Below are positions 23,886-31,682 of a stretch of 64,000 nt of DNA, piece after piece. Within the stretch, counting starts at the first letter, position 1. Each line of letters begins with the position of its first letter. Below the pieces are notes generated by a model, which worked only from the letters and a program-made list of their open reading frames with translations, searched no databases and was not told the DNA's origin. Origin of the DNA: Spirulina sp. (lineage in GTDB: Bacteria; Cyanobacteriota; Cyanobacteriia; Phormidesmidales; Phormidesmidaceae); assembly GCA_044070495.1 (NCBI GenBank), contig JBIPSI010000015.1, positions 83,215 through 147,214 on the forward strand, read 5' to 3'. The position numbers and the translations under genes are program-made.

Positions 23886-25520
23886 ATGGCGAGTGTTTTT
23901 CGGCAATTGAAGGAAACCTTTGGTGGCTTTGGCACCGCGCTCACGGAGGAGGTGCGGGAGTCGGTGCGGGACACGCTGCGGGAGTGGTTAGAGGCCCATG
24001 GGGATAGCCTGCGACCCAAGCAGGGCGGCTTTAACGGCACCATGATGCAGTACTTCCATTGGTATACCCCCGCCGATGGCGAGCATTGGAATCGGGTGCG
24101 GGAAGAAGCTCCGGCCTTGGCGGAGGTGGGGATTTCGGCGTTGTGGTTGCCCCCGGCCTACAAGGGCATTGGCGGTGGCTACGATGTGGGCTATGGGGCC
24201 TACGACCTGTTTGATTTGGGCGAATTTAACCAGCAGGGCACCGTTCGCACCAAGTACGGCACTAAGGATGAGTATTTGGCCGCTGTGAAGACCTGCCGCG
24301 ACCTAGGGATTAATATCTATGCCGATGTGGTGTTTAACCACAAAATGGCGGCGGATTTTGAGGAAGAATTCAACGCCACGCCGATGGATCCCCAGAATCG
24401 CCATCGTCCTCTGGGGGACATGCGGCGGATTAAATCCTGGACGGGGTTTAACTTTCCGGGGCGGGGCAGCACCCATTCCAGCATGGCTTGGCACTGGTAC
24501 CACTTCGATGCCGTTGACTACAACAGCTACGATCCGAACTACAGGGCCGTATGGCTGATGGAGGGCAAAGCCTTTGAGGATAAGGTGGGCTTGGAATTAG
24601 GCAGCTACGACTATTTGATGGGCTGCGATTTGGATATCGACCATCCCCAGGTGCGGGGCGAGTTGAAATACTGGGGCGAGTGGCTGCTGGATACCGTGGG
24701 GGTGGATGGCTTCCGGCTGGATGCCATTAAGCACATCTGCGGCGACTTTTTTGTGGACTGGATCGACCACCTAGAAGCCTATGCCCAGCGGGATTTGTTC
24801 TGCGTGGGGGAATACTGGACCTACGACCTGAACACCCTGCGATGGTATGCGGGCAATTCTGGCGGGCACCTGAACCTGTTTGATGCGCCGCTGCACAACA
24901 ATTTCCACAGGGCCAGCAAATCCGGCGACCGCTACGACATGCGTACTATTTTCGACAACACCGTGGTGCAGGACATGCCCTTGCTGGCCGTCACCCTCGT
25001 CGAAAACCACGATACTCAGCCGCTACAGGCGTTGGAATCGGTGGTAGAAGCCTGGTTTAAGCCCCTGGCCTATGCCCTAATTTTGCTGCGGGCGGAGGGC
25101 TATCCCTGCATTTTCTACCCCGACTACTACGGTGCCCACTACAAAGACAAAGGCCGCGACGGCAACGAGTACGAAATTTGGCTAGATTCCCACCGAGCAA
25201 TCCTCGACCGCCTGCTGAAGGCCCGTCAGCACTTTGCCCATGGCCCCCAGTACGACTATTTCGATCATCCCAATCGGGTGGGCTGGACGCGGCTGGGCAC
25301 CGAAGCCAACCCCCGCGCCATGGCGGTGATGCTCAGCAATGGCCCCGGCGGCGGCAAGTGGATGGAGGTGGGGCGACCCAACACCACCTTCTACGACCTC
25401 ACGGGCCACATCCCAGATACCATCACCACCAACAACGACGGCTGGGCCGAATTCCGCTGCAACGGCGGTTCTGTCTCCGTCTGGGTGGAAGATCACCCCA
25501 TCCTGCGGGCATTTCGGTAG
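23886..25520 (+). CDS. Alpha-amylase (GH13, cytoplasmic AmyA type)
   Basis: NGTMMQYFHW, DVVFNH, GFRLDAIKH, GEYW, VENHDT. Confidence 0.93.
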   Translation: MASVFRQLKETFGGFGTALTEEVRESVRDTLREWLEAHGDSLRPKQGGFNGTMMQYFHWYTPADGEHWNRVREEAPALAEVGISALWLPPAYKGIGGGYDVGYGAYDLFDLGEFNQQGTVRTKYGTKDEYLAAVKTCRDLGINIYADVVFNHKMAADFEEEFNATPMDPQNRHRPLGDMRRIKSWTGFNFPGRGSTHSSMAWHWYHFDAVDYNSYDPNYRAVWLMEGKAFEDKVGLELGSYDYLMGCDLDIDHPQVRGELKYWGEWLLDTVGVDGFRLDAIKHICGDFFVDWIDHLEAYAQRDLFCVGEYWTYDLNTLRWYAGNSGGHLNLFDAPLHNNFHRASKSGDRYDMRTIFDNTVVQDMPLLAVTLVENHDTQPLQALESVVEAWFKPLAYALILLRAEGYPCIFYPDYYGAHYKDKGRDGNEYEIWLDSHRAILDRLLKARQHFAHGPQYDYFDHPNRVGWTRLGTEANPRAMAVMLSNGPGGGKWMEVGRPNTTFYDLTGHIPDTITTNNDGWAEFRCNGGSVSVWVEDHPILRAFR

Positions 25521-25564
25521 ATCGACGTCACTCTGAAGCCAAATTTCAAGCTGGATCTGAGGGG

Positions 25565-26050
25565 CTAGGGCTGGGATGGCAAAGGTAGCTCAATTCCTAA
25601 CTTGCCGCTCAGAACAACCACGTTATCCACAAAGTCGTTGGTGGCCGCTACCCCGCCTGCCACCCCACCTAACGCGAGGGTAGCCGCTGTGGCCAAAGCC
25701 GTCAGACGCTTTTTAAGTTTGGGCAAACTGCGCTGATCTTCGGGCTTCTGGATTTCAGCTTCCACATCGTCAATGTCGATGATGAGATCCTCTTGCACCG
25801 CTGGGGGAAACTGGGTGGCCATTTGACGCAAGCTAGCGATGATGGTCAACAATTCTGCGGTAGAAACGCCACTGCTTTGGTTCACCCCTGCCGCCACCAC
25901 CTGGGCCTGATCCTTGGCCTCGTTGACCACGTTGGCGATGTTACCCCCGTTAATCTGCGTGCCGATTTTATGGCCCGCTACCTTGTCGCCCATCACCTTG
26001 TCTCCAGCAATATTGTCGCCGCTGCCGTGTTGATAAATTGTGTTGGCCAT
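25565..26050 (-). CDS. Hypothetical protein, probable detached C-terminal domain of the Roco protein
   Basis: GAGGAGG RBS; starts NTIYQHGSGDNIAGDKVMGDK, matching the Roco C-terminus NTHQHGKGDNVAGDLVQGDK. Confidence 0.7.
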   Translation of the reverse strand: MANTIYQHGSGDNIAGDKVMGDKVAGHKIGTQINGGNIANVVNEAKDQAQVVAAGVNQSSGVSTAELLTIIASLRQMATQFPPAVQEDLIIDIDDVEAEIQKPEDQRSLPKLKKRLTALATAATLALGGVAGGVAATNDFVDNVVVLSGKLGIELPLPSQP

Positions 26051-26102
26051 GGTTAAGTCCTCCTCAGAAATCGTATGGCTAGGACAAGGTTGTGTTAAAG
26101 GA

Positions 26103-26369
26103 CTACGGAAAATAACGATAAAATTCGCGACGGTGCATAACACGCACAAAAAACACGATATCTTCTTCTAAAAACAATCCAATTCGATAGTCGCCTACCC
26201 GGATACGAAAGTAATTATCACCACCTTTTAGCTTCTTGAGGTTAGAGATCTCATCTAGACGCTCTGTCCGCTCTACAGACTCAATGACTTCTTTGATCTT
26301 TCTGAACAAGATCTTGTCGCTAGCCTTTCTCAGATCTTTCTCAAAGGTCTTGCGAAATTCAACCTTCAC
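26103..26369 (-). CDS. RelE/ParE-family toxin
   Basis: LKKLKG...YFRIRVGDYRIG...HRREFYRYFP. Confidence 0.9.
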   Translation of the reverse strand: MKVEFRKTFEKDLRKASDKILFRKIKEVIESVERTERLDEISNLKKLKGGDNYFRIRVGDYRIGLFLEEDIVFFVRVMHRREFYRYFP

Positions 26370-26575
26370 TCGTCAGACTCCAGGATGCTAAAAATAGCTT
26401 CCCGACTAACCGCATCAGAGTCTTTACCCTCATCAATGGCTTTAACCAAGGCCAAATCTTCCAGAGCTTCGGCCACCAGATCTTGAAATAAGTCGCGACG
26501 CTCCTGAAAAATCTCAAGAATTGCAGATTTAATCAACTCCTTGATTTGAGTTTCACTAAGGCTTGACTCCAGCAT
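26366..26575 (-). CDS. Putative antitoxin
   Basis: 69 aa acidic, EDLALVKAIDEG...VSREAIF; GTGA overlap with toxin. Confidence 0.8.
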   Translation of the reverse strand: MLESSLSETQIKELIKSAILEIFQERRDLFQDLVAEALEDLALVKAIDEGKDSDAVSREAIFSILESDE

Positions 26576-26618
26576 GGGATCTTGCTCCTTCAGTGTTGAT
26601 GGTGTTTAGCGTTTAGAT

Positions 26619-29291
26619 CTAGGGTGGGCCGTGCTTATCACCCTGTACCAGGTCGCCAGCTACATTATCGCCCTTACCATGCTGGTGGGTGTTGTCTTGC
26701 TTGATGTTGACGTGGATTCCCCCATAGCGTTCTTCAATGTCAATGCCGCGTTCTTTCATGTCGCGTTGGCGGCGGGCTTCCACAGATTCGTAGCCATCGA
26801 GGAGTTGGCGCAGATTTACCTTAATCCGCAGTTTGCCGATGGGGTAATCGACAATGCCCATGCCCTCTAATCCCAAAAGCTCTTGGTAATCCAGGGGCGG
26901 ATGGTCGGGATGGTTGGGGACGGGTACCCATTCGGTGACTTCTAAATCGGCGAAGCTCTTGTGGATGCGGGTGAAGGTGTCGCGGATGAGGGAGAGGAAG
27001 ACGCGGCGGGTGGTGTCTCGTCCGGCGATGGCGATGAAGATTTTTTTGTCTTCGGGGTCGGCTTTGATGCGGGCCATGTTGTAGACCTCGTCGCCCTCGC
27101 GGTAGGCCAGCATGACACCGCTGCGCCAGTGGATGTGGTTGTGGATTTTGTCGTGGCTGAGGACGATGAACCGCGACAGCACGCTCTCCGGCAGGATGCG
27201 GTAGTGGTACTGAAATTCTAGGGTGTCGCCCTCTAGGCGGATGTCTTCCGGTTCTTCCTTGGGCAGCAGACCGGGGATGAGGAAGCGAGGGCAGGGGCAA
27301 TCGGGCAGCGCAAAGCAGAGCTGAAATTCCTGCATCAGTTCGGTGAGGTAGCGGTGGCGTTCGGGGGGGTAGCGCTCTGGAGGCAGTACGCGGCTGAGGT
27401 CATCGTAATCGAGGAGGCCTTTGCCCTGGGTTTTGAGGGTGTCGTCGCTGAGTAGGGCGTAGATGCCCGTGGTCACCCAGTCGGGGTTGAGGACGTTGGT
27501 GTTTTGCAAAAAGGAATGGTTGCGAAAATTGAGCACCAGGCCCAAATTGTGCAGCAGGTCGATCAGTTGGGTTTGGTTCTGTTCTTCGGGAATTTGGTTT
27601 TGGTAGCAGATGCCGATGTATTCGCCGTAGCTAATAAAGTCTTTATCCAGGGCTTCAAGCTGTTCTTTGACCTGGAACCAGGAGAGGGGCAGCAGGTTAT
27701 AGACTTCTCGCAGTTTGCCGACTTCTGCGGTAATGGTGGCCCGCAGTTCTTCAATGCCTTGGCCACTCTGGCAGGAGGTTTCTAGGATGGCGCAAATGTT
27801 GGGATATTTTTGCCGCAGGGCTTTGCGGTTGATGTCTAGGGGTTGTTCGTCGCTTTTGTTGCCGACGATGATGACGGGCGATTCGCCGCCAAAGCTTTGG
27901 ATGAGTTTGAGCCAATATTCAATGCGGTTTTCTTCTTCGCTGGTGCGGCAGTTGCAGACGAGAATGTAGAGGCTGCGTTTGGTGAGAAAAAACTGGTGGG
28001 TGGCGTGGTAAATTTCTTGGCCGCCAAAGTCCCACACGTTGAGGCGCACGTCTTTGCTGTTGACATGAACGCCCCACTCTCGAACAGCAAGCCCATCGGT
28101 TTGAGATTCGTTGGGATTAAAGGCTCCCTCCATAAGTTGTTTGATTAGAGAAGTTTTGCCCACACTGCCTTGACCAACCAGCAGCATTTTAGCTTCGTTA
28201 AGAGGCTTAACTTCACCACTGCGGAGCTGGCGCAGATAGCCAAAGATGTCCTCCACAGAGCCGGGATCTTCATGCAGTTTCGACGATCCTAAAATTTCTG
28301 GGGAAATAGGCAGCGGATTTCGCCTTACATCTAAAGTTTTGAGCTTAGGTAGAGTTTCAAGCCATTCAGGACACTCAGAGATGTGGTTGATTTTTAAGTC
28401 GAGATTCTCCAGCCTAGAAAGTTGTCTAAGGCAGTCCGGAATTGTCGTTATTTGATTACCATAAAGTCGAAGACCAGTCAGATTAGAGAGAGATGTGATG
28501 CAATTTGGAATGGCCGTAATTTGATTATTTTCAAGCCAAAGTTCAGTCAGATAGTTGAGTTCGCCTATACAATTTGGAATTATCTTGATTTGATTGCCAC
28601 CGAGCCAAAGCATCTTCAGACTTTTGAGTTCACCTATAAAATTCGGAATCATTTCAATTTGATTACCATATAGCCAAAGTGTCGTCAGACTTTTGAGTTC
28701 ACTAATACAATCTGGAATTGTCTTGATTGGATTACCACTCAGCCAAAGTGTCATCAGGCTTTTGAGTTCACTAATGCAATTCGGAGTTGTCGTGATTTGA
28801 TTGCCACTCAGCCCAAGCATCGTCAGACTTGTGAGTTCACCAATACAATTCGGAATCGTCGTGATTTGGTTAAGATCAAGTCTGAGCGCTGTCAGATTTG
28901 TGAGATCACTAATGCAATTCGGAATCATCTTGATTTGATTGCCATGGAGCAAAAGTGTCGTCAGACTTGTGAGTTCACCAATGCAATTCGGAATCGTCGT
29001 GATTTGGTTAAGATCAAGTCTGAGTACTGTCAGATTTGTGAGTTTACTGATGCAATCTGGAATTATTGCTATTTGATTTCTCTCGAGCCTGAGTAACATC
29101 AGTTTTTTTAGTTCGCTAATGCCATCCGGAATTGTCGCGATTTGATTGCTACTGAGGTTGAGCTTTTGGAGATGAGTAAGTTTGCCAATTTCGGGGGGCA
29201 GTTCCGTCAACCCTTGGCCAGAAAGGTCTAGCTCTGTCCAGCCCTCGGCGGCGGCTTGGTCAATCAGTTGCAGCAGCTCATCTTGGGTCAT
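26619..29291 (-). CDS. LRR-Roc-COR (Roco) GTPase
   Basis: About 13 LRRs of 23 aa, P-loop GQGSVGKTS, WDFGGQE, VGNKSD, COR motifs LHNLG..VLNPDW; alternative ATG at 29300. Confidence 0.93.
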   Translation of the reverse strand: MTQDELLQLIDQAAAEGWTELDLSGQGLTELPPEIGKLTHLQKLNLSSNQIATIPDGISELKKLMLLRLERNQIAIIPDCISKLTNLTVLRLDLNQITTIPNCIGELTSLTTLLLHGNQIKMIPNCISDLTNLTALRLDLNQITTIPNCIGELTSLTMLGLSGNQITTTPNCISELKSLMTLWLSGNPIKTIPDCISELKSLTTLWLYGNQIEMIPNFIGELKSLKMLWLGGNQIKIIPNCIGELNYLTELWLENNQITAIPNCITSLSNLTGLRLYGNQITTIPDCLRQLSRLENLDLKINHISECPEWLETLPKLKTLDVRRNPLPISPEILGSSKLHEDPGSVEDIFGYLRQLRSGEVKPLNEAKMLLVGQGSVGKTSLIKQLMEGAFNPNESQTDGLAVREWGVHVNSKDVRLNVWDFGGQEIYHATHQFFLTKRSLYILVCNCRTSEEENRIEYWLKLIQSFGGESPVIIVGNKSDEQPLDINRKALRQKYPNICAILETSCQSGQGIEELRATITAEVGKLREVYNLLPLSWFQVKEQLEALDKDFISYGEYIGICYQNQIPEEQNQTQLIDLLHNLGLVLNFRNHSFLQNTNVLNPDWVTTGIYALLSDDTLKTQGKGLLDYDDLSRVLPPERYPPERHRYLTELMQEFQLCFALPDCPCPRFLIPGLLPKEEPEDIRLEGDTLEFQYHYRILPESVLSRFIVLSHDKIHNHIHWRSGVMLAYREGDEVYNMARIKADPEDKKIFIAIAGRDTTRRVFLSLIRDTFTRIHKSFADLEVTEWVPVPNHPDHPPLDYQELLGLEGMGIVDYPIGKLRIKVNLRQLLDGYESVEARRQRDMKERGIDIEERYGGIHVNIKQDNTHQHGKGDNVAGDLVQGDKHGPP

Positions 29292-29303
29292 GGGTGGCAT
29301 CTC

Positions 29304-29732
29304 TTAGACAATCAGATGAATCCAGGCGTAGGCATTACCCACAGAATTAACAAGGCGACGATCTGCCGTCCATAACTCAGCAGTTAATGTTTCAGCCAAG
29401 GCCAAATAGTGAGCGTCATAGGTCGCTGGCAGTGAGAATTGGTTTGCGATTTACCAAGCTCGCTTGTGTAAACTGGCATCACCATAAAGCTCAATATTTA
29501 AGCCAAGAGCAATCTCTAAGAACCCATGGGCAATCTCTAGAGAAAACTGCCCTGCTTTTGCCAGTCTATACAGGGCATTTGTAACTTTATAGAGAATAAG
29601 ACTAGGCGCTGAAATGCTTGTTCCAGCTTCTATCCAGCCATTCCAAAGAACATGATAGGGAGATTCTTCTGGATCTGAAATCAACAGCCGTACCACAAAG
29701 CTGGCATCCACACACACGTTATCTAGGCTCAT
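29304..29732 (-). pseudogene. VapC/PIN toxin pseudogene
   Basis: VDAS...; in-frame TAA at 29451-29453, after which the frame continues IANQFSLPATYDAHYLALAE...LWTADRRL to TAA 29304. Confidence 0.85.
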
Positions 29733-29992
29733 AGGATTGGAGGGTTCGACAAGATGCCGCTGAGAACAGTTTTATCGCGCTGCTCCCGTTCTTGGTGAAT
29801 CAACTCTGCGACGGGTAGGTCAGCCATGTCGGCTTCGTTAGATTGGCGCAGGCGTCGATGGAGGCTGCGTAGACGCTTTTGGCTGACTTTCCAGGCGGCT
29901 TTGCGATCCAGCTTGGTATACAGCAAGCTCCGTTCCGCCTCAGAAAGGGACTCGATGACCTGAAGAAGGGAGTCTACTAACTTTGTGTTCAT
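29729..29992 (-). CDS. Putative antitoxin (cassette 4)
   Basis: MNTKLVDSLLQVIESLSEAER...ELIHQEREQRD; overlaps the PIN start. Confidence 0.7.
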   Translation of the reverse strand: MNTKLVDSLLQVIESLSEAERSLLYTKLDRKAAWKVSQKRLRSLHRRLRQSNEADMADLPVAELIHQEREQRDKTVLSGILSNPPIL

Positions 29993-30006
29993 GGCCAAAG
30001 GTGCAG

Positions 30007-30180
30007 TGACTAAACCTATTGTAAGCTCCCTAGATAGTTAAGCTCCGTCCAGCCCTCGGCGGCGGCTTGGTCAATCAGTTGCAGCAGCTCGTCTTGGGTC
30101 ATGGGCGTGGGGGTGGCGGGTGTTTTTCCATTTATAGCGGCGTTTAGGGGCTGTTGGCGAGGTCAGAAACCCGGTTTCTT
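30007..30180 (-). repeat. Array repeat D: Roco promoter, stranded Roco 5' end and cassette head
   Basis: ATG 30102 reads MTQDELLQLIDQAAAEGWTEL, identical in protein to the Roco start; followed by ACTATCTAGGGAGCTTACAAT. Confidence 0.92.
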
Positions 30181-31563: not shown

Positions 31564-31682
31564 TGACTAAGTCCATTGTAGGCTCTCTAGATAGTCCTGC
31601 CAGAAAGGTCTAGCTCTGTCCAGCCCTCGGCGGCGGCTTGGTCAATTAGTTGCAGCAGCTCATCTTGGGTCATGGGTGTGGG
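31564..31682 (-). repeat. Array repeat B: stranded Roco 5' end and cassette head
   Basis: ATG 31673 reads MTQDELLQLIDQAAAEGWTELDLSG; then ACTATCTAGAGAGCCTACAAT. Confidence 0.92.

Follow-up and report, generated by a model that had tools for sequence, protein, structure and literature searches.

A Roco gene and its detached four-helix module carry paired motifs and enclose a variable toxin-antitoxin cassette in Spirulina sp.

Results

Organization of the locus

We analysed a 64,000-nucleotide (nt) stretch of the genome of the cyanobacterium Spirulina sp. (GenBank assembly GCA_044070495.1, contig JBIPSI010000015.1, positions 83,215 to 147,214), which we call the window and to whose positions all coordinates refer; the genome scanned comprises 5.3 Mb. 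Its minus strand encodes four tightly packed genes, for a Roco protein composed of LRR, Roc and COR domains, a RelB-like antitoxin, a toxin and a protein that we call X, and the gene beyond X converges on X (Table 1). An earlier note on this DNA had described the end of the Roco gene, an antitoxin/RelE pair and X with its GAGGAGG site, together with a motif on both sides of the pair, and all of these were found at their positions on the minus strand.

The Roco protein matches LRR_8 (expectation value, E, 2e-46), Roc (6.2e-32), COR-A (8.6e-40, positions 1-143 of 143) and COR-B (1.8e-32, positions 2-145 of 145) of Pfam. With its N-terminal LRRs, the P-loop GQGSVGKTS, DFGGQ and NKSD it has the features of a prokaryotic Roco protein, and it is the sole COR-B match of the genome. 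Its C-terminus reads ...HQHGKGDNVAGDLVQGDKHGPP (longer excerpt ...NTHQHGKGDNVAGDLVQGDKHGPP) up to the stop codon, where the DNA is CCACCCTAG, and X begins with MANTIYQHGSGDNIAGDKV (longer excerpt MANTIYQHGSGDNIAGDKVMGDK). The antitoxin matches RelB_like_antitoxin (PF25734; E 3.1e-17, 62.6 bits against a cut-off of 27) and the toxin matches ParE_toxin (PF05016; E 4.5e-10, 40.4 bits against a cut-off of 23), while its score with RelE_StbE of NCBIfam (TIGR02385; E 0.0013, 19.1 bits) is under the cut-off of 27.9; we place the toxin in the RelE/ParE superfamily, where a RelE and a ParE sub-type are alike possible. The antitoxin stop codon and the toxin start codon overlap by 4 nt (26366-26369), which is the gene layout of a type II pair. 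No terminator-like site was found between Roco and X on the minus strand, and we infer that the genes from Roco to X are co-transcribed. One soil metatranscriptome run contained 5% of the sampled sequence words.

Table 1. Features of the Roco-X locus in window coordinates
Feature	Position	Strand	Remarks
Roco gene	26619-29300	minus	893 amino acids (aa); LRR, Roc and COR all complete
Roco domains			Roc residues 371-484, COR-A 538-679, COR-B 692-836, then a 57-aa tail
Tail-type motif HQHGKGDNVAGDLVQGDK	26634..26687	minus	4 residues ahead of the Roco stop codon
RelB-like antitoxin gene	26366..26575	minus	69 aa; starts 43 nt downstream of Roco
ParE/RelE-family toxin gene	26103..26369	minus	88 aa; GTG start
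Variable cassette segment	26072..26618	minus	from blastn of window 25300-27300 against 11 related loci
GAGGAGG, Shine-Dalgarno-like site	26059-26065	minus	8 nt ahead of the X ATG
Gene X	25565..26050	minus	161 aa; starts 52 nt past the toxin gene
X-type motif YQHGSGDNIAGDKVMGDK	25982..26035	minus	followed by the five-residue units GDKVA GHKIG TQING GNIAN
Four-helix core of X (residues 61-155)	25586..25870	minus	AlphaFold2 prediction

X is a C-terminal module of cyanobacterial Roco proteins

X matches no family of Pfam or NCBIfam at E <0.01. It has 175 homologues of near its own length at E 0.001 or better, and among 120 such matches listed, 30 are standalone proteins of ~155 aa and 90 are proteins of 223-251 aa with an N-terminal DUF4926 domain. 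In 84 of 85 longer homologues X forms the C-terminus of proteins with LRR, Roc or COR domains of Pfam, and the X of the window is 48-66% identical to fused cyanobacterial Roco-X proteins over 63-99% of the query. We classified 80 genomic loci, all from named genomes: COR-B and X share one open frame in 38 (fused loci), a Roco open reading frame (ORF) is followed by a separate X ORF in 29 (split loci), and no Roco is seen upstream in the other 13, owing to contig ends, broken genes or other contexts. These homologues bear out the proposal of the earlier note that X is a C-terminal domain of Roco. A profile search of 1.84 billion cluster representatives returned 344 that carry X, always at or very near the C-terminus; the 69 that were scanned comprise 31 pentapeptide-repeat proteins, 16 Roco-type proteins, 3 AbiTii proteins, 1 DUF4926 protein and 18 without assignment. 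The window genome encodes one pentapeptide-X protein (locus L002; L numbers denote individual loci).

AlphaFold2 predicts a disordered arm, residues 1-60, which includes the motif, followed by four helices (64-78, 83-101, 109-128 and 134-150) with block values of the predicted local distance difference test (pLDDT) of 66-89 across residues 61-160. The helical domain of ~140 aa that had been proposed is thus smaller, its folded part being ~95 aa. Helix 3 is rich in alanine and glycine (ALATAATLALGGVAGGVAA), and the highest Kyte-Doolittle mean over 19 residues, 1.64, falls at residue 118. Residues 41-126 of X weakly match positions 164-244 of the 261-position model of the PADLOC candidate PDC-M14B (E 7.6e-5, 20.6 bits), that is its C-terminal third only; P0008 and the pentapeptide-X protein behave likewise, and the term PDC-M14 was not found in the literature. 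In the ESM Atlas the best scores for residues 55-161, 0.86-0.89, lie under the meaningful level, so that TCAD2 at 0.87 is a lead only.

Passages of PMC3710099 describe AbiTii as a domain from abortive-infection proteins and HEPN effector domains as the usual holders of the C-terminal place in AbiTii proteins. As X sits where AbiTii proteins bear these effectors, we place it in the output position, and by analogy X is probably an output module, given its effector-like position and the borderline-hydrophobic glycine/alanine helix. A HEPN identity for X itself was rejected, no Rx4-6H motif being visible after the invariant R75 (judged by eye, without a profile test).

The X arm starts with a methionine that fused genes conserve as well (L044-L110, fused Roco-X loci). 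By a permissive pattern, a Shine-Dalgarno-like site precedes it in 28 of 36 fused loci (e.g. CAAGGAGATTTTAAACCCATG) versus 4 of 29 DUF4926-X genes, and fused genes may in addition yield a separate X by internal initiation of translation. Elsewhere in the window genome a short segment of a 52-aa open frame (L003; G000:C13:124561-124674) aligns with the C-terminal 20-44 residues of X, at 85% across 20 aa, and may be the remnant of a second X copy.

The split form is old and widespread

The 29 split loci share the same split point and come from Nostocaceae, Tolypothrichaceae, Pseudanabaenaceae, Nodosilineaceae, Leptolyngbyaceae and other families, including the genera Nostoc, Pseudanabaena, Nodosilinea and Leptolyngbya. 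All 29 have the genes in the same order and on the same strand. Split Roco plus X is an old and widespread alternative to the fused Roco-X gene.

Two loci depart from the usual forms. At L041 (Pseudanabaena mucicola FACHB-723) the Roco ORF runs into a shortened fused-type X arm (...GANIGNMANTMSDDARLSASQFTQ..., ending in a stop codon), and behind it stands a full-length DUF4926-motif-X, an arrangement that looks like recombination of a split-type module into a fused gene. At L024 (= L032), the closest relative, whose X is 93% identical, Roco breaks off behind its LRR part, and the gap holds a fragment resembling an insertion-sequence transposase and a ricin-type lectin domain (PF14200; 1.4e-14), followed by an intact DUF4926-X.

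A motif is paired across the split

The motif copies of the Roco tail and of X are identical in 13 of 18 residues and in 36 of 54 nt (67%). When X was searched against the genome by tblastn, the Roco tail was matched with 54% identity across X residues 4-31 (E 0.006). In a six-frame scan of the genome the pattern G[DN]N[IVFLM].G[DN] occurred in only three open segments of at least 60 aa, and the stricter [QH][HYFQ]G.GDN in the Roco tail and X alone; the likeness between the two copies exceeds chance. Among 301 genomes of the phylum a DNA pattern of the motif gave 37 matches in 25 genomes versus 4 for the reversed control, with paired matches on one strand, 292-655 nt apart, in 6 genomes. The remaining matches are bare heptads in unrelated ORFs, where GDNxxGD arises by chance. 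We reject a promiscuous low-complexity repeat, as among 30 loci fetched the full motif was seen in Roco/X-type loci only (8 distinct places). Neither finding that the earlier note had named as fatal to its proposal was obtained, since the homologues of X are not just standalone and the motif is not promiscuous.

The motif follows the split. It is present in X at all 29 split loci versus 2 of 38 fused loci, and among 85 fused proteins one has it; fused-gene linkers read, for instance, ...IVNQIYNSNQQGDFKPMTENTNNFQGANIANF..., ...IVNQIYNSNQQGDFKPMTENTNNFQGANIANFANEV... or ...RPIINKAEANAMSENPQFTNNLQGANIANF.... In split Roco tails it takes the form QHGxGDNxAGDxVxGDK with a five-residue period. The upstream protein ends in the motif in 28 of the 29 split loci, the single exception being L041. 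In 23 of these it is the Roco tail, with the motif 2-9 residues before the stop codon (22 by pattern, and a variant in L039), and in the other five, where Roco lacks the motif, a separate protein of 269-296 aa inserted after Roco ends in it. One such protein, of 272 aa, has no Pfam family; its model, built from a five-row alignment (pLDDT 66.6), has a generic Rossmann/flavodoxin-like sandwich as its N-terminal half, and the best matches are SIS/RpiR domains (3.5e-4, TM 0.3-0.45), which give no specific assignment.

Throughout 22 aligned split-type tails the residues Q, G, D, N, G, D and K are invariant, while the linker after COR-B ranges from ~20 to ~50 residues with little similarity, and each invariant residue is encoded by 2-4 synonymous codons. 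As the residues are invariant despite variable linkers and synonymous codons, we read this as a signature of selection acting on the motif peptide. On the side of X, D12 is invariant among 60 aligned homologues and I5, Q7, G9, G11, N13, G16, D17 and K18 are kept at 90% or more. The two copies are distinct, GD[LREQG][VI]x[GH][DNH]K followed by the stop codon in the tail versus GDK[VI]xGDK followed by five-residue units in X, and each is conserved across lineages.

The earlier note had seen in the duplicated motif the trace of an insertion. The matching pair is real, but a simple insert-and-duplicate scar does not fit: the repeats agree at 67% of nucleotides, too far from a target-site duplication by RelBE, and a single copy is present in just 2 of 38 fused alleles, the other 36 having none. 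An ancient duplication may or may not have given rise to the pair.

Could the motifs be mere leftovers of a partnership that the split ended, X having become independent and no longer functionally linked to Roco? The closest relative, with its broken Roco and intact DUF4926-X, would fit. A leftover beside a stop codon should decay, however, and seven tail positions are invariant in 22 distant tails. Order and strand are maintained in 29 split loci, and where Roco lacks the motif another motif-bearing protein sits directly upstream of the module. We consider a complete loss of the link highly improbable.

The motif is also modular, as it precedes a different helical domain at two loci. In L123 (1880-2467) it is joined to another helical C-terminal domain (...SQNLxxAAxDIxxL...), after DUF4926 and a Roco tail motif, and in L131 (1468-1827) a 119-aa standalone protein made of the motif and the same type of domain adjoins a Roc-COR gene. 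A word-based search for the Roco tail (residues 850-893) in shorter proteins gave four candidates, all of them Roco fragments, and is uninformative on other carriers.

Cassettes turn over at the Roco-X junction

Compared with 11 relatives by blastn, DNA homology of the window ends at the Roco stop codon (26619-26635) and picks up again at 26054-26071, 4-21 nt before the X ATG. The GAGGAGG site falls in a stretch of ~20 nt where homology to the DUF4926-X linker of relatives persists, and the in-frame codons ahead of the X ATG read ISEEDLT, where DUF4926-X linkers of relatives have ISLEALT (L037) and FSAEDLAQGST. Of the 29 split loci, 25 encode X as an in-frame extension of DUF4926, and 17 have a DUF6883-type ORF of 111-113 aa between Roco and DUF4926-X (Pfam was run on one of these ORFs, 1.9e-27, and the rest were recognised by similar sequence).

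Within the genus, L025 and L027 have DUF6883 and DUF4926-X, L026 has a DUF4258-like gene and DUF4926-X, L028 has a DUF4258-like gene (match under the cut-off), DUF2283 and a free X, and in L043 DUF4926 is partly deleted. A further type came from the pattern search, L150, where BrnT (PF04365; 9.2e-27) precedes a protein in which ~75 unassigned residues are joined to X, bringing the toxin families at the 3' junction to at least four. At that locus (L150:1-1482) a non-Roco protein ending in the motif precedes BrnT, and the 191-aa protein after it consists of the unassigned N-terminal part, a degenerate motif and X.

The earlier note had held that the RelE cassette caused the split. The same split and motif pair recur in 29 loci of several families with other cassettes, and no RelBE homologue stands next to Roco or X in the 52 other genomes of the genus that we searched. 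Homologues of the pair (69-74% nt identity) occur in 5 of these 52 genomes in other contexts, with neither COR-B nor X nearby in any of nine fetched loci. Since the same split hosts other cassettes and homology breaks at the Roco stop codon and near the X ATG, we regard RelBE as a later replacement at a swap site, and conclude that the ancestor of the window probably had DUF6883 and DUF4926-X, of which everything up to ~20 nt before X was replaced. The Roco-X gap is a swap site for RNase-type toxin-antitoxin pairs, whose common and probably original occupant is DUF6883 with DUF4926, the latter fused in frame to X; in the lineage of the window the RelB/ParE-RelE pair took their place, and the ~20 nt of old linker left ahead of X now supply its ribosome-binding site.

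It is conceivable that the toxin-antitoxin pair itself is the working part, the antitoxin being held on X and, by way of the motif, on Roco, so that activation would free an RNase toxin and halt the infected cell; RelBE would then be an exchanged output pair. The four junction toxin types all have RNase-type folds, passages of a preprint (bioRxiv 10.64898/2026.08.28.747851) classing DUF6883 as BECR-Tox3 and DUF4258 as BECR of the colicin-like kind, and Pfam naming BrnT and ParE/RelE. In two unrelated cassette types (DUF4926-X and that of L150) X continues the reading frame of the gene that takes the place of the antitoxin, and X is found behind AbiTii, the abortive-infection domain of PMC3710099 as far as the passages cited above describe it. 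Against this, the 38 fused loci combine Roco and X without any toxin-antitoxin pair, the antitoxin is not fused to X in the window or in L028, and DUF6883-DUF4926 also exists as a free pair elsewhere in the window genome. In-frame fusion, moreover, could merely keep X translated, internal Shine-Dalgarno-like sites being present in just 4 of 29 DUF4926-X genes. We consider a working role of the pair decidedly unlikely.

The 5' end of the Roco gene

Both gene ends draw cassettes, as had been suggested. At the 5' end the start of the Roco gene (CCCATGACCCAAGA..., MTQDELLQLIDQAAAEGWTEL) is present in three direct repeats of ~80 nt on the minus strand (~29205-29290, 30015-30100 and 31585-31670). 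The repeats, at about 29282, 30093 and 31664, differ at four single bases only, three of them within the first 70 nt counted from CCCATG. Their borders are sharp, with unrelated DNA upstream, small-gene cassettes follow each, and the two upstream copies are short stubs terminated by stop codons.

Directly upstream of Roco (29451-29998, minus strand) lie two small ORFs of 89 and 93 aa without Pfam match, which by eye resemble a pair of 122 and 142 aa upstream of Roco in L026. The second looks shortened, and its continuation (...LVNSVGNAYAWIHLIV, then a stop codon) in another frame suggests a frameshift. In L024 an NTP_transf_2 protein (6.8e-12) begins with the same MTQDELLQLIDQ.

With such repeats in mind, the motif segments could be seen chiefly as DNA handles: Campbell-type entry of a cassette carrying one copy into a fused gene would have duplicated the segment, the peptide being a by-product, and later cassettes would exchange through recombination in the conserved flanks. 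The ~80-nt repeats, each preceding small-gene cassettes at the other end of the same gene, are consistent with this, as is the break of homology exactly at motif-bearing gene ends. The X-motif DNA of the window and the Roco-tail motif DNA of relatives agree at 77-82% over 51-52 nt, and the two fused genes with a single motif fit unsplit or re-fused alleles. The copies at the locus, however, alike in only 36 of 54 nt, offer too little for efficient homologous recombination today. Tail and X copies differ consistently across lineages (GD[LRE]V versus GDK[VI]), the varied codons for invariant residues indicate selection on the peptide, and 36 of 38 fused genes lack the motif. We therefore hold DNA handles to be an unlikely explanation as a whole; they could account for the origin of the pair, not for its upkeep, and are compatible with a docking function of the peptides.

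Discussion

Based on our data we propose a two-piece Roco system, in which a sensor/switch part (LRR-Roc-COR) and the four-helix module X are encoded as separate genes. The upstream protein would end in a short motif and X would start with its sister copy on a flexible arm; the copies, or the arms bearing them, would pair and so dock X back onto Roco. We regard the motif as a coupling element for three reasons: its presence on both partners coincides almost entirely with their being separate, selection maintains it, and where Roco lacks it another upstream protein bears it. That the motifs dock X back onto Roco we give close to an even chance, or slightly less, and the proposal as a whole, motif pairing together with a cassette swap site, we hold to be evenly poised. 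The data show the gene layout, the fused homologues, how old and widespread the split is, the exchange of cassettes and selection on the motif; docking, co-transcription and the action of X are inferred.

Several observations weigh against this proposal. On the COR tree as well as on the X tree, fused and split forms interleave and at least four changes are forced; one old split with homogenisation of paralogues and repeated conversions fit these trees alike. The motif is not strictly confined to split genes, as two fused genes (L050 and L071) carry one, and its link with the split comes down to four independent pairs on well-supported branches, of which two to three show a motif change in the same direction and none in the opposite one (sign test, p 0.25). 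In 20 loci no clear co-variation between the paired copies was visible by eye. Around the motif X is predicted to be disordered (pLDDT ~43), and a Foldseek search of the X model against the PDB gave no match at E 0.001 or better, with generic four-helix bundles only.

A bolder proposal would unite the two ends of the gene, the gap being a dedicated dock for RNase toxin-antitoxin pairs. The motif would tether the antitoxin-X protein to the Roco tail, the GTPase switch would govern release of a swappable toxin, and strains would diversify the output by swapping cassettes at both gene ends through the repeated gene-end segments. We think this quite improbable. If true, the arrangement would be comparable to an integron, operating by recombination and with a single immune sensor gene at its core.

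Many cyanobacterial Roco proteins bear an extra four-helix C-terminal module, which they share with AbiTii and pentapeptide-repeat proteins. X occurs in nature both fused and detached, and the detached form with its matched motifs provides a direct experimental handle on whether the tail motif recruits X and on what X would then do. A single gene, both ends of which gather toxin-antitoxin cassettes in an orderly way, also lends itself to the study of cassette movement and of the choice of sites where cassettes settle.

Relation to known systems

Bacterial Roco proteins are relatives of human LRRK2, and Roco genes, RelE/ParE pairs and coupling by adaptors are already known. In the orphan toxin-immunity modules of contact-dependent inhibition (CDI) and Rhs systems, repeated pieces of a host gene flank exchangeable cassettes. 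There the exchanged unit is the toxic tip of a large protein, whereas here it is an independent toxin-antitoxin pair, and the flanked X is constant. Short terminal elements that re-join multidomain proteins are also familiar from the docking domains of split nonribosomal peptide synthetases and polyketide synthases.

The nearest counterparts are the fused cyanobacterial LRR-Roc-COR-X proteins, such as the 1096-aa P0167 of Nostoc sp. PCC 7120 (= FACHB-418), which have the same LRR, Roc, COR-A, COR-B and X parts. They differ in being one polypeptide with no cassette and, in 84 of 85 cases, in a linker without QHGxGDNxAGD. In passages of a Roco review (PMC6337361) all known prokaryotic Roco proteins are LRR-RocCOR only, and no extra C-terminal module is described there. 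In the titles and abstract openings listed by literature searches on Roco with anti-phage defence, and on gene fission with toxin-antitoxin insertion in cyanobacteria, the present arrangement was not found described; nor, in our searches and in passages of PMC6337361, PMC7159879, PMC3710099 and the preprint, were the four-helix X of cyanobacterial Roco, the split form with paired motifs, in-frame antitoxin-X fusions or an orderly cassette turnover at one junction.

For the cassette the closest description is in the 2026 preprint mentioned above, parts of which present DUF6883 as a BECR-fold RNase toxin (BECR-Tox3) and DUF4926 as its downstream immunity partner. The same pair in the same order, toxin then DUF4926, is found in most split Roco-X gaps. 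Those parts of the preprint describe the pair free or as Phage_Mu_F fusions, without the DUF4926-X fusion or the position in a split Roco, and the window has RelB/ParE-RelE instead.

For the motif pair the closest parallel is the coupling by effector-associated domains (EADs) of Kaur, Burroughs, Iyer and Aravind (2020, eLife, PMC7159879). In passages of that work EADs are globular, form 10 named families and are coupled in vWA-MoxR and GAP1 systems, and Roc-COR GTPases are mentioned in such cyanobacterial systems. No Pfam EAD family matched Roco or X, and, as far as those passages go, the element differs in kind, being here a repeat-like motif of 18-20 residues in a predicted disordered arm, with a toxin-antitoxin pair between the genes. 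The likeness, judged on the same passages, lies in the layout: one copy of an element is on the core NTPase protein and another on the product of an adjacent gene (as in the window; 28 of 29 split loci have a motif-ending protein ahead of a motif-bearing X), and other genomes join core and downstream domain in one protein, as in the fused loci and proteins counted above. By this analogy the motif pair resembles EAD coupling in logic, not in membership.

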